From an uncultured Acidobacteriota bacterium (GTDB taxonomy: Bacteria > Acidobacteriota > Blastocatellia > RBC074): a DNA stretch of 64,000 nucleotides. The position numbers and the translations under genes are program-made. The notes beneath the pieces are model-generated. The model searched no databases and had not been told where the DNA came from. It saw nothing but the letters and a program-made list of their open reading frames with translations. This document shows, in pieces, positions 1 to 64,000 of this stretch. Where the stretch lies: positions 128,001 to 192,000 of the forward strand of contig CAWCKY010000004.1 in NCBI GenBank assembly GCA_963796275.1. The letters are read 5' to 3'. The first letter of the stretch is position 1. Every line of letters starts with the position of its first letter.

Positions 1-36717
<36,717 letters not shown>

Positions 36718-36880
36718 ACCGGATATTGGGAATTAAATATAATTGATGAAAGTGGAGGGGCAGCTGAAGCGGGCACACAAGGGTGAAGACAAATGTTCCT
36801 GAGGAGCAAAAGTCATACCTGACACTCAATAGATTTGCGCGGGTCAGAATTTTCTGCTCAATCAGATACCTATCTCCTCG

Positions 36881-36925
36881 AAAAAGAGCAGGGGAGAAAT
36901 CGGTTGATTTCTCCCCCTGCTCTTT
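36881..36925 (-). terminator. Rho-independent terminator-like hairpin ~165 nt upstream of the NRPS-B start
   Basis: aaagagcaggggagaaatc-ggtt-gatttctccccctgctcttt forms a 19-bp stem with one bulge, with a U5 tract on the minus strand. Confidence 0.75.
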
Positions 36926-36950
36926 GATCTTATTCATAACTCGGCATTAC

Positions 36951-36964
36951 AACTCGCCTGAGTT
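36951..36964. promoter_or_regulatory. Palindrome AACTC-N4-GAGTT (candidate operator or small hairpin), copy 1
   Basis: aactc-gcct-gagtt; the arms are invariant in three copies while the spacer varies. Confidence 0.5.
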
Positions 36965-37171
36965 ATTACTCACTTTTATTGATTGAATGAAAATGTAACT
37001 AAAATATAACTAAATGGAATCAATGGTATTGAGATCTCGTTGACTCTCCGAGTCGTCTTTGCTGTCTGGCTTACAGACAAGCGGTGCCTTAGTTTCGGTC
37101 ATCCGCTTCTTTCTTGTCCGGAACCAAGCCAACATCAGATTTCGTTTGATCCGGCCGCCTAGTCGATTTCC

Positions 37172-37970
37172 TCATTCGTTCGAGCCGATCAAGTTGCGCC
37201 CTTTCCCTCGGATAAACTCCTCAAGTTTGGCCGTAAGCGTCTGTCCAATCTGAGAAGTCGGCTCACGAAATGCGAGCATGTCATGGTGCCGGCCCGCGAC
37301 CGGATGTACCTCAATTTCTCCGCAGACATATCGCCTCCAGGCTTCTGGAATGGCCGCAGCATTTCCTTCAGAATCAGTAGCAGTAAAGAGTAAAAGATCG
37401 CCATCGTATCGTTGTGGGATGAAGGCGTTCATAGCAGAGATGCTGCTTTGAATGTCTTCGACAAGGGTATCAAGCGGGAAGTCTCCCAGGTGACGGGAGA
37501 GTTCATTGAAGAACGAGGTATCTAAAGGTTTGTCTTCCGTATCATAGCCCAGATATCGACATACCCCGGAAAGTATCTGATCTTGAGTCACCTGGACAGG
37601 CGTTTGCTGAATAATCGGCGGATAGGCATCCAGAAGGGCAAGAAGGGCAACTTCATCCCCTTGTTGCTGAAGGAGAGTCGCAATCGCATGCGCGATAAGT
37701 CCGCCCAATGACCAACCGATTAAATAATAGGGTCCGGCAGGTTGGATCTTGCGGATACTGATCAATGTAATCGGCGGCCATCTCTTCAACTGTTTGTGGG
37801 ATGAATTCTGGATCGCTAAAGTGACGAGATTGCAGTCCATAGATTGGGCAGTCTGCACCGATGTAGTGCATCAGCCTGGTGTAGCACCAGCTAAGCCCCC
37901 CGCCAGGATGAATGCAAAACAGTGGAGGAAGGTTGCCTTTAGATCTGAGCGGCAGCATGACCTCAAATGC
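37172..37970 (-). other. NRPS-A thioesterase domain
   Basis: [16 protein letters not shown] (37700-37717), LLDAYPP and GRHHDML. One extra base at ~37757 shifts the frame. Confidence 0.9.
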
Positions 37971-61900: not shown

Positions 61901-63381
61901 CGATTCGCTCGTTCATTCAACTCTCTGAAGCTCAGCTCTTGCTCCCCAAAGACCACTGCCACCGCCTGTGGGCTCTTCTTCACCTGCTGCTCGAACAGCT
62001 CTACCAACGTCGCCTGCGCTATCTCCCTCTCCGTCCGGTTCCACTCCAGTATCTGCTCTCGCTCCTGCTCGCTCAGCAACTCCACTCGCCATATCTGTCG
62101 TTCCTGATCGTCTACAAGCCTATCCAGATAACTTAAAAATCTTCGTTCATGAGTAACAAGTGCGTCGCTCGAGTAGCGGTTCGATTCTGCATGAAAATCG
62201 ATTCTCAACTCTCCCGCATCAGAATATCGTTCATAGACATTGATCGAGAAATCTTCGGCTGGTCCATTTGTAAGAATGTGTGCCGTGGCGTGATTGCCGG
62301 CAAACCGCAGTTCAGGAAGGAATGGTATGGCATTGACCACTGGGCCATATAGCCTCTGATTCACAGCGCGTAAACCAAGATCCCGTCGTATATGCTCACC
62401 TCGATAGCGATGGTGCCGCAGCGCCAGACGGGTTCTCTGCCCGACCTGTTGTATTAGCTCCGAGAATGCCATGCCTGGCAGCACCTTCAGTAGCAATGGC
62501 ACCACGTTTGCCAGCATGCTCGGGATTGACCGTGAGACAATTCCTGAGCGGGCAGAGACCGCGAGACCGAGGACTATTTCATCCGCGCCCGTCAATCGGC
62601 TCAGATATGCTGCCACCCCCGCCGTTATGATCTGTGACAAACTCGCCCCGGTGCGGCGCATACTCTCCCGCAGCCGCTCCGCGACAACGCGCTGTACCTG
62701 TGTCGTGTGGAGCAATGAGCCGCGTGAAACGATTGATCGCTGATCCGCAAGGCTTACCGGCTCAGGCAAGCCGGCTAGACATTCCAACCAATACTGCCGA
62801 TCTTTCACGAACCGCTCTGACGCGCAATACCTCTCTTCCTCCTCCAAAAGAAGCCGCAGAGAACCGAAAGCGCTGCCCTTATCCGGCAGGCCGCTGACTA
62901 GTGAAGTGTAGACATCCGCTACCCGTCGTTCGACGAGCAAACACCCGACCCCGTCATTGATAATGTGATGAAATCGAAAGTACCAAAGAAACTTCTCAGG
63001 GCCCGCCTTGAACAGGACAAAGGTAAAAAGCGGGCCGTTGGTCAAATCAACTGCGTGGCCTATATCCGCTTTCATCCAATCTTTGGCCGCTTCCAGTGGG
63101 TCCGCTTCCGCACTGATATCAAAAAATGGCAGCGACCATTGCAAGGACCCATTCAGCATTTGCCGCGGACCATCAGAATTCTCCAAGATACGCACACGAA
63201 GCGCCTCGGCTTCCATAAGAACCTGTCGCAACGCAGCCTCGAAGAGACCTAGATCAACCGGTCCATCGATTTCTATGTATTTGGCGATGTTGTAGATGCT
63301 ACTGTCGGTATCGACCTTTTGTGCTAACCAGATTTCGCGCTGAGCAGCCAGGAGAGGGAGATATAAATACTGATTTACCAT
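37172..63381 (-). CDS. Giant NRPS-A: Cstarter, 8 modules, TE; lipopeptide synthetase fragmented into several ORFs by apparent indel errors
   Basis: ORFs 59530..63381, 58061..59563, 57004..57552, 56303..57046, 54648..56363, 53485..54819, 45807..52154, 37653..45791 and 37172..37858 are colinear pieces of one C-A-T series. The breaks fall inside domains, not at module borders. Confidence 0.88.
38000..41170 (-). other. NRPS-A module 8: LCL C - A(Pro-like, DVQFAAHVAK) - T
   Basis: [30 protein letters not shown]. Confidence 0.8.
41190..44350 (-). other. NRPS-A module 7: LCL C - A(His-like, DSALIAEVWK) - T
   Basis: [30 protein letters not shown]. Confidence 0.7.
44370..47530 (-). other. NRPS-A module 6: LCL C - A(Ser, DVWHFSLVDK) - T
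   Basis: The A domain is near-identical to both module-1 A domains; frameshift errors at ~45800-45870. Confidence 0.85.
45900..47880. repeat. Near-identical repeat of ~49060-51040 (T, C, A N-terminus); a third partial copy lies at ~40670-41410
   Basis: Shadow ORFs 47085 vs 50244 (offset 3159) and 40725. Confidence 0.9.
47550..50690 (-). other. NRPS-A module 5: LCL C - A(Ile/Val, DAFFLGVTFK) - T
   Basis: [30 protein letters not shown]. Confidence 0.82.
50710..53850 (-). other. NRPS-A module 4: LCL C - A(Gln, DAWQFGLIDK) - T
   Basis: [30 protein letters not shown]. The C domain is frameshifted several times. Confidence 0.8.
53870..57090 (-). other. NRPS-A module 3: dual E/C - A(Ile/Val, DAFFLGVTFK) - T
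   Basis: HHMMNRRGD plus HHLTMDH; [30 protein letters not shown]. Confidence 0.8.
57110..60250 (-). other. NRPS-A module 2: LCL C - A(unassigned, DAMPIGSASK) - T; predicted D residue
   Basis: HHIAFDGWS; [31 protein letters not shown]. Error-rich region. Confidence 0.6.
60270..63381 (-). other. NRPS-A module 1: starter C - A(Ser, DVWHFSLVDK) - T
   Basis: [28 protein letters not shown] and the Ser code; paralogous to NRPS-B module 1. Confidence 0.88.
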
Positions 63382-63543
63382 ACGGGATATTGGGAATTAA
63401 ATATAATTGATGAAAATGGAGGGGCAGCTGAAGCGGGCACACAAGGGTGAAGATAAACGTTCCTGAGGAGCAAAAGTCATACCTGACACTCAATAGATTT
63501 GCGCGGGTCACAATTTTCTGCTCAATCAGATACCTATCTCCTC

Positions 63544-63589
63544 GAAAAAGAGCACTGGAGAAATTGGTTCGATTTCTCCGATCTTTTTC
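63544..63589. terminator. Terminator-like hairpin in the NRPS-A leader
   Basis: ggagaaat...atttctcc stem (63557-63579) flanked by gaaaaaga/tctttttc, with U-tracts on both strands. Confidence 0.6.
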
Positions 63590-63604
63590 ATAACTCGGCA
63601 TTAC

Positions 63605-63618
63605 AACTCGTCTGAGTT
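63605..63618. promoter_or_regulatory. Palindrome AACTC-N4-GAGTT, copy 2
   Basis: aactc-gtct-gagtt. Confidence 0.5.
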
Positions 63619-63814
63619 ATTACTCACTTTTACTGGTTGAATGAAAAAGTAACTAAATGGATCAGTGGTATTGAGTATCTCGTTGACTCTCCGAGTCGTC
63701 TTTGCTGTCTGGCTTACAGACAAACGGTGCCTTAGATTCGGCCATCCGGCTTCTTTCTTGTCCGGAAACAAGCCAACATCAGATTTCGTTTGATCCGGCC
63801 ACTTCGTCGATTAC

Positions 63815-63850
63815 TCACTCATTCGAGCCGATCAAGTTGCGTTCTTTCAT
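63815..63850 (-). CDS. Candidate 11-aa mini-ORF or leader peptide [11 protein letters not shown]
   Basis: GAGGAGG (63859-63865) lies 8 nt before the ATG at 63850; TGA at 63815-63817. Confidence 0.35.
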   Translation of the reverse strand: MKERNLIGSNE

Positions 63851-63865
63851 TCAGATAACCTCCTC

Positions 63866-63901
63866 AAAAAGCGAGGGGAGAGACCCTTTGATCTCTCCCC
63901 T
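63866..63901 (-). terminator. Terminator-like hairpin, third leader-unit copy
   Basis: The minus strand reads AGGGGAGAGAUC-AAAG-GGUCUCUCCCCU-CGC-UUUUU. Confidence 0.6.
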
Positions 63902-63950
63902 ATATTCGATCTTTGCTATTACGGCTATTACGTTGTTATTACAAGATAAC

Positions 63951-63964
63951 AACTCAGCTGAGTT
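63951..63964. promoter_or_regulatory. Palindrome AACTC-N4-GAGTT, copy 3 (perfect 14-bp palindrome)
   Basis: aactcagctgagtt, followed by attact as in the other two copies. Confidence 0.5.
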
Positions 63965-64000
63965 ATTACTAACTTGTTTTGATTAAGTGAACTTGCAAAT

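Follow-up and report, generated by a model that had tools for sequence, protein, structure and literature searches.

The 64,000-nt stretch of DNA analysed here (the window, C4:128001-192000) is part of a 9.46-Mb, 7-contig assembly of an uncultured Acidobacteriota bacterium that is 94.7% complete with 5.2% contamination. It carries two giant nonribosomal peptide synthetase (NRPS) genes and, upstream of them, three copies of a short noncoding unit whose origin and possible role are considered here. All features relevant to this repeated unit in the window lie on the minus strand. NRPS1 starts at 63381 and runs, in several frame-broken pieces, to a terminal thioesterase (TE) domain (37172..37858; from the list of open reading frames (ORFs), a PF00975 match with E 4.4e-19 and the C-terminal sequence) and a stop codon at 37174-37172. 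NRPS2 starts at 36717, has an intact frame of 9354 aa and is followed by a second gene that ends 89 nt past the window start, and a domain search places a condensation domain at the opening of both NRPS1 and NRPS2. Downstream of the NRPS genes are pgk and tpi; the pgk product is most similar (71-76% identity) to that of Blastocatellia MAGs, and the organism is accordingly taken as an acidobacterium of this class. The upstream neighbours are a gene that we call X, a dual-specificity phosphatase, a divergent TonB-dependent receptor and a PAS histidine kinase. Gene X (318 aa, without a Pfam match) lies beyond the window end at 64134-65090, with its stop side at 64134; its N-terminal hydrophobic stretch was read as a putative signal peptide. 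A scan of 13 flanking ORFs turned up no gene for a DNA-binding regulator, and none lies within about 8 kb upstream.

A sequence-only reading had described the three copies, here A, B and C, as a tandem regulatory module, and the elements that it listed are indeed present in each. The 5' part of copy A (63951..63991) holds a weakly promoter-like TTCACT-N17-TAATAA (63991-63963, hexamers by inspection only) that overlaps the palindrome AACTC-AGCT-GAGTT (63964-63951). It is followed by a terminator-like hairpin of 12 pairs, 7 of them G-C, with loop AAAG (63901-63874) and a T5 tract at 63870-63866 (together 63866..63901), and the fold of this unit has a z-score of -6.4. Next comes the probable relic of a TE gene 3' end (63815..63865), made up of GAGGAG (63865-63860), TTATCTGA (63858-63851) and an 11-residue frame, ATG..TGA, at 63850-63815. 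A spacer, S, then occupies 63650..63814, with a hairpin TTGTCTGTAAGCCAGACA at 63723-63706, and matches 37171-37000 at 152 of 163 nt; its first part corresponds to the region 3' of the TE gene and its second part to sequence natively 5' of the unit.

Copy B continues from this spacer. Its 5' part (63590..63640) comprises TTCATT-N17-TAATAA, the palindrome AACTC-AGAC-GAGTT (63618-63605) and the core ACGAGTTGTAATGCCGAGTTAT (63611-63590), and is followed by a hairpin remnant (63545..63579) with a stem of 8 pairs, 3 of them G-C, at 63579-63557, 7 unpaired nt and T5 at 63549-63545. The leader that separates it from NRPS1 (63382..63544) contains GAGGAG (63543-63538), TATCTGA (63532-63526), a TTG..TGA frame (63525-63508, MSRKL), a 27-codon ATG frame and the conserved TTATATTTAA with a candidate -10 element, TATATT (63405-63400). 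Copy C, preceded by its own spacer S (spacer and 5' part at 36936..37171), has the palindrome AACTC-AGGC-GAGTT at 36964-36951 and the core at 36957-36936. Its hairpin (36925-36886, with T5 at 36885-36881; together 36881..36925) has 19 pairs, one bulge and loop AACC and is the strongest terminator-like element of the three, with a fold z-score of -5.5 for the copy. The leader of NRPS2 (36718..36880) again contains GAGGAG (36879-36874), a TTG..TGA frame (36861-36844, MSRKF) and a candidate -10 TATATT (36741-36736).

The repeat consists of true homologues and goes beyond chance. The exact pattern AACTC-N4-GAGTT occurs 3 times in the window and at 8 places in the assembly; with up to one mismatch it occurs 7 times in the window against a shuffle mean of 1.14, and none of 100 shuffles reached 7. 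The extended form TAACTC-N4-GAGTTG is found at three places assembly-wide, all of them at copies A, B and C. BLAST relates B to C at E 6.5e-173 and identifies a fourth copy, D (C5:1005-1117), at E 8.6e-18. An nhmmer profile built from B, C and D alone recovered copy A at E 2.7e-11 with no further match in 9.46 Mb, and a profile from all four copies gave four matches, all 5' of paralogous NRPS genes, so that the unit is confined to one NRPS paralogue family. Core 10-mers occur elsewhere in the genome at chance level (22 against about 18 expected). The genome-wide motif search thus did not find the scatter of a REP-like element that the sequence-only reading had named as evidence against a dedicated unit, and a dispersed repeat of the REP or MITE type is rejected on the ground that only four copies exist; a real multi-copy palindromic repeat, found in the leader of copy D, provides the contrast. 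The finding is a lineage-specific repeat and is ordinary in kind.

Copy D, at about C5:1000-1120, lies 5' of the start of a 58%-identical NRPS gene, a decaying paralogue. Contig C5 also has the phosphatase end and gene X in degenerate form, as well as two palindromic transposon-like repeat families (C5:1141-1441 and C5:381-570) with 47 and 66 BLAST segments on other contigs, one copy on contig C1 being 98% identical; since C5 shares these repeats with other contigs, it comes from the same organism. The repeat at C5:1141-1441 is inserted in the copy D leader, between the unit and the NRPS start, and is flanked by duplicated ATTGAGTA. Copy D retains the hairpin, a T-rich tail (TTGTTTT) and the block GCGAGTTGTAATGCCGAGTTAT, which is identical between C and D at 22/22 positions and matches at 21/22 in B. 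The palindrome, exact in A, B and C, has a single mismatch here (left arm ACCTC, not AACTC), and D lacks the approximately 50 nt that bear TTCAYT-N17-TAATAA and the TAATA flank. Sequence resembling spacer S, including the hairpin TTGTCTKTAAGNNAGACA, is also found 5' of unit A (from 64031, a little past the window end) and 5' of copy D, which indicates that the whole intergenic region is paralogous. On C4 as on C5, gene X itself stands before the NRPS upstream region, the C5 version (C5:723-845) being truncated. The paralogue on contig C1, a 59% identical NRPS gene, has a divergent upstream gene and a long A+T-rich upstream region without the hairpin, with TTATATCTAA before its ATG.

Beyond this genome the searches found no homologue of the unit, and the pattern matches are at chance level. 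A BLAST search of 60 relatives found no homologue of the leader, the single 26-nt match (E 0.003) being taken as chance, and none of 86 other genomes of the family has a BLAST match to the unit. The 22-nt core, allowing up to 3 mismatches, occurs in 3 of those 86 genomes, each time in apparent coding sequence without a hairpin nearby, and the reversed-pattern control gave 1; the exact 20-nt core has one match in metagenome contigs, inside a 937-aa ORF on the opposite strand. A search of genome contigs for loci related to the NRPS N-terminus found no relative. A look-up of RNA runs found none that covers the locus. Of three soil metagenome runs whose contigs were compared with it, two contain short near-identical pieces. 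In the third soil metagenome (63474-63628), contigs of a relative less than 90-95% alike cover the leader, with insertions exactly where B lacks the 5' arm of the hairpin; these insertions could be the relative's full-length hairpin or its equivalent of copy C.

The recurrence of the unit is explained by its having been copied along with each operon: it is the conserved core of the intergenic region 5' of paralogous NRPS operons with starter condensation domains. Positions 63866-63350 align to 37226-36686 without rearrangement (481/557 columns identical), and this alignment spans the last ~17 TE codons, the stop codon, the 165-nt spacer S, the unit, the 158-nt leader and NRPS coding sequence. 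NRPS1 and NRPS2 themselves are paralogues of mosaic similarity, with 62-99% identity per 150 nt. The near-identity of B and C therefore reflects their being parts of one recent co-linear duplication of ~500 bp, and their agreement provides no independent evidence for arms that persist while spacers change. The palindrome arms are exact in A, B and C but carry one mismatch in D, the B hairpin has lost 10 nt of the 5' arm that C has, and the evidence of pairing compensation is thin. A self-standing tandem module is likewise not what the alignments describe, the repetition being a by-product of the duplication of a whole NRPS operon with its upstream region, plus one recombination scar.

The presumed scar lies in copy A. 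The relic there is identical to 37226-37172, the end of the TE gene, at 44/52 nt, and 9/11 residues of its frame match the TE tail. Similarity to the TE gene ends 5' of ~63866, where similarity to the other units (hairpin, T-tract and palindrome) begins, which places the junction within about 63866-63848. Around this joint the unit sequence TTTTCGAGGAG..TATCTGA and the TE end CTTGAGGAGTTTATCCGA resemble each other. Copy A thus represents an older, homologous version of the unit's 5' half, fused at the similarity patch TTGAGGAG..TTATC.GA to sequence 85% identical to the TE 3' end, and its post-terminator stretch aligns to that of C (0/500 shuffles as good) through its first part only. The junction may record the loss of an upstream operon, in which a deletion joined a unit to its own TE end, or else the point at which a conversion tract stopped. 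The direction was probably from TE end to relic, with modest support from an alignment between the NRPS1 TE tail and that of the C1 TE paralogue (29/1000 shuffles as good, p ~0.03).

The NRPS1 TE (37226-37172) has a 15-residue C-terminal extension past the point where the NRPS2 TE ends in KLEK* (C4:127955-127908), and the TE tail of the C1 paralogue, LYQRNE*, is intermediate. An origin of the NRPS1 TE tail from leader sequence was considered in view of the earlier end of the NRPS2 TE, and is disfavoured by the C1 alignment. A TE origin for the post-terminator stretch of B, C and D was also examined and found no support (185/500 and 351/1000 shuffles as good). In these respects the locus resembles other cases of segmental duplication or unequal recombination among NRPS paralogues, with mosaic identity of 62-99%, a duplicated flank that takes in the 3' end of the preceding gene and a junction at a short similarity patch; its sole peculiarity is a relic frame that mimics a leader peptide.

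Compared with NRPS2, NRPS1 has single-base indels between 59600 and 52000 that break it up over at least 7 frames; several of these indels fall at runs of G or C, and the housekeeping nusG beside secE and rplK (C6:1277972-1278254) is likewise split over two frames. Taken together these suggest that the assembly may hold indel errors, and NRPS1 need not be a pseudogene.

The origin of the relic bears directly on the leader peptide that had been proposed, as the 11-residue ATG frame of copy A matches the closing codons of the upstream TE gene. The 5-codon TTG frames fare no better: the last residue differs between B and C (L or F), and in D the corresponding frame has 13 codons and runs into the transposon-like insert. 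GAGGAG, read as a Shine-Dalgarno sequence, is replaced by GAGTAG in D, and in B and C 12 nt separate it from the TTG; the B and C NRPS start codons themselves have no Shine-Dalgarno sequence. Upstream duplexes with the 5' arm of the terminator, which an attenuator might use as antiterminators, were no better than those of shuffled sequences (271, 118 and 33 of 300), and an Rfam scan of 36000-64000 gave no match at E up to 1. The lack of antiterminator pairing and of an Rfam match leaves a riboswitch, a T-box or a leader-peptide attenuator unsupported. The small frames and the apparent Shine-Dalgarno sequence are probably non-functional, judging from their comparison across copies, and the peptide part of the earlier model is largely refuted.

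The hairpin and T-tract form the sole part of the unit with a clear predicted role, that of a Rho-independent terminator. A terminator scan found them in A, B and C, with 4 and 3 sites in the two regions against ~0.7 expected. The predicted energies of the G+C-rich stem-loops are -22.1 kcal/mol in A, -30.3 in C and -23.6 in D, but only -9.1 in B; the stem of C has 12 pairs in the scan, as against 19 in the fold, and that of D has 16. The T-tract directly follows the stem in A, C and D, but not in B, where the 7 nt intervene. Across the four copies, 84% of the cells of an 11-pair core helix are paired and 2 pairs are changed on both sides, with B partly misaligned, and one pair sets A apart from the other copies by a double change, G-C to A-U; the covariation score was reached by 38/500 shuffles, a weak statistic with four sequences. 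Between B and C, the hairpin and T-tract are the least conserved segment (41/50).

The distribution of the hairpin follows the orientation of the upstream gene. It is intact where that gene is co-directional, namely gene X for A, the TE gene (ending at 37172) for C and the gene-X remnant for D; it is absent at the C1 paralogue, where the upstream gene is divergent, and decayed in B, which lies behind the intact hairpin of A. Outside long ORFs, contigs C4 and C2 carry such hairpins at 2.3 times the density found within them (79 in ~469 kb; 143 in ~1956 kb), and hairpins of this kind occur after co-directional gene ends 32 times and after gene starts 16 times. With intrinsic terminators the hairpin shares a stem that is rich in G+C and 11-19 pairs long, a loop of 4 nt, a T5 run immediately after it and a place 3' of a co-directional gene in A, C and D. 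The differences are that the hairpin stands within a conserved region 5' of the next operon, 235-250 nt past the stop codon, and that it is co-inherited with the downstream NRPS gene and not with the upstream gene; its activity is a prediction from sequence.

Between the T-tract and the NRPS start codon B and C are identical at 153/158 positions, compared with 56/60 in the 5' part of the unit and 302/400 at third codon positions of the first 400 codons (123/147 in the first 147). In this stretch TATATT is the only sigma-70-like -10 element with a position conserved in B, C and D; the C1 paralogue has TATATC, and the element lies 17-22 nt before the ATG. The surrounding TTATAT(T/C)TAA is present 17-22 nt 5' of the start codon in all four paralogous NRPS genes, the distant C1 one included (window 63409-63400 and 36745-36736; C5:1543-1552; C1:~1216912-1216903).

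We therefore favour, with slightly more than even confidence, an insulating terminator followed by the operon's own candidate promoter, set in a co-duplicated NRPS upstream region. The terminator would stop transcription arriving from the co-directional upstream gene (gene X for A and D, the previous NRPS for C), and each giant operon would run from its own promoter in the best-conserved ~160 nt between T-tract and start codon, with TATATT as a candidate -10. The duplicated region would then include a probable terminator, the palindrome and, probably, the remnant of a gene end posing as a leader peptide. As for the 5-N4-5 palindrome, together with the GAGTTGTAATGCCGAGTTAT block beside it, it is a candidate for a binding site or a small hairpin. 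A 5-N4-5 geometry is that of sites for dimeric factors of the CRP/FNR type.

Several points weigh against this reading. A sigma-70 scan found no acceptable promoter in either region, and the candidate TATATT has no credible -35; a rough matrix, heuristic only, found nothing convincing, and by-eye checks of the unit for sigma-54, sigma-28 and ECF patterns were equally unconvincing. The S spacer and the 5' part of the unit show 93% identity between B and C as well, more than third codon positions do, which a model with an insulator only leaves unexplained, and patchy gene conversion could account for B/C conservation as well as selection. The distance of the hairpins from the upstream stop codons, ~235-250 nt, is large for a terminator that simply closes a gene, this genome has few strong canonical terminators (32 after ~1339 gene proxies), and the pattern of presence and absence comes from five related, non-independent loci. 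Retention of a terminator in NRPS leaders could equally mean regulated termination. As to the relic, its polarity is itself inferred, the reverse (capture of leader sequence by the NRPS1 TE tail) being disfavoured only by the alignment at p ~0.03, and the earlier stop of the NRPS2 TE is compatible with that reverse direction. As no promoter was identified and gene conversion could mimic constraint, the insulating reading is held at about even odds.

The main rival, which we consider unlikely, is that the hairpin is a conditional terminator within a transcribed leader and is overcome by processive antitermination. A promoter at or 5' of the palindrome would be required, and a small RNA hairpin, either AACUC-N4-GAGUU or, in C and D, a CUC-x-GGC...GCC-GAG stem with loop GAGUUGUAAU, would recruit a protein to the elongation complex, which would then read through the leader terminator along an operon of 28-80 kb. 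The model for such a system is LoaP, a NusG paralogue of Bacillus velezensis, which acts by processive antitermination on the dfn and mln leaders, where a small UNCG-type hairpin lies 5' of the leader terminator (PMC12691694). The dfn layout (PMC12691694), with a small RNA hairpin, an intrinsic terminator and a very long secondary-metabolite operon, matches the one found here. In copy C a terminator-like hairpin, which may lie within the NRPS transcript, is 160 nt 5' of a gene of 9354 aa. Also in keeping with antitermination are the TTCAYT-N17-TAATAA spacing, kept on inspection in A, B and C, and the conservation of the 5' part between B and C. Against it, the promoter-like hexamers fail the scan criteria, D has no TTCAYT-N17-TAATAA, the closest paralogue, on C1, has no hairpin, and the palindrome loops are AGCU, AGAC, AGGC and CGGC, not UNCG.

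Specialised NusG paralogues do accompany NRPS clusters in this lineage, which favours antitermination, and one of the UpxY family is on the same contig. A genome search with PF02357 gave 3 matches, of which two overlap in the split housekeeping nusG and the third is a paralogue at C4:52597-53169 (190 aa; UpxY family, NF033644, 103 bits against a cut-off of 100). This gene heads a cluster at C4:40-53 kb that includes an M28 peptidase, an ABC transporter, an amidinotransferase-like protein, an A-T-C NRPS and a CmlA-like hydroxylase, and an FHA-GAF sigma-54 activator lies upstream of the cluster (C4:40001-58000, ~75-88 kb beyond the window start). Its leader contains a sigma-54-like TGGCAC-N5-TTGC, an inverted repeat CCTGAGT-N11-ACTCAGG and GGCAGTAGCCTG, one mismatch from the ops consensus. 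In a same-genus genome (contig C747:2160-3391, minus strand), two genes stand directly before a 59%-identical NRPS: one of 198 aa, with an N-terminus read as MbtH-like and no NCBIfam match, and one for a 181-aa RfaH-like NusG paralogue (103 bits to TIGR01955, below the cut-off). This arrangement too speaks for antitermination; in our genome, by contrast, no NusG paralogue adjoins the cluster, and the only one, ~75 kb from the window start, has its own sigma-54-like promoter and cluster.

The element that recruits RfaH and UpxY has the ops consensus GGCGGTAGnnTG. The best matches to it in leaders A/B, C and C1 have 3 of 10 specified positions wrong, in the copy D region the only matches with 2 mismatches lie inside the inserted repeat, and ops-like sites are not enriched genome-wide (25 found, ~36 expected). 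The unit thus resembles RfaH/UpxY leaders in having a short hairpin-capable element in the leader of a long operon, and differs from them in that no ops-like sequence is present in any of the four leaders. Improbable, in our estimate, is the more specific proposal that the unit is an acidobacterial counterpart of the LoaP/dfn system, in which the lone UpxY-family paralogue acting in trans, or another protein, would license read-through of NRPS operons of 28-80 kb; the hairpin recognised, AACUC-N4-GAGUU plus the GAGUUGUAAU block, would then differ from both UNCG and ops. The likeness to the dfn/mln leaders (PMC12691694) lies in a small hairpin followed by an intrinsic terminator before a very long secondary-metabolite operon and in the linkage of NusG paralogues to NRPS clusters in the lineage. 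The differences are that no NusG paralogue is adjacent here, that there is no UNCG tetraloop, that the phylum is Acidobacteriota and that the presence of the hairpin in NRPS mRNA is an assumption.

Neutral hitch-hiking, in which the unit would have no present function and would owe its similarity solely to recent operon duplication and gene conversion, is also improbable. In its favour, the units of B and C are 71-78% identical to that of D, little above the 63-67% of third codon positions, NRPS1 and the C5 paralogue carry frameshifts, and the B hairpin has decayed. It does not readily account for a strong hairpin kept, with one compensatory pair, in three copies that are ~30% diverged, for a leader more conserved than neighbouring synonymous sites, or for the perfect 22-nt block shared by C and D, of which ~0.07 would be expected by our estimate at 67% identity over ~500 nt. 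The same block, set against the 63-67% third-position identity of the adjacent genes, could point to a small-RNA gene, which would have TTCAYT-N17-TAATAA as a weak promoter and a transcript of ~80-100 nt that begins near the palindrome, carries the seed GAGUUGUAAUGCCGAGUUAU and ends at the hairpin and U-tract. Such genes usually combine promoter-like spacing with a body that is short and conserved and with a strong terminator, but the hexamers are poor and missing in D, Rfam gives no match, the block is found nowhere else and its 10-mers occur at chance frequency, and none of the 86 family genomes has it, so that we regard a small-RNA gene as decidedly improbable. The model first proposed, of an operator and a leader-peptide or alternative-structure attenuator with its own Shine-Dalgarno sequence and tiny ORF in a tandem module, has the order of the elements in three copies and the specificity of the palindrome to these loci on its side, but is very improbable given reading frames that are a TE tail or are not kept in D, and given the pairing and Rfam results above.

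An insulating terminator and candidate promoter in a co-duplicated upstream region thus remain the reading that we prefer, and the locus carries two cautions for the study of such clusters: repeated "regulatory modules" beside repetitive biosynthetic genes can be by-products of duplication, and a neat Shine-Dalgarno sequence with an ORF can be the fossil end of a neighbouring gene. For the expression of NRPS clusters from uncultured acidobacteria, it matters that a strong terminator is predicted ~160 nt before the start codon. The native NRPS promoter is probably in the short stretch after this terminator, or else an antitermination factor would be needed. The antitermination reading, if true, would extend the control of antibiotic operons by NusG paralogues to the Acidobacteriota.

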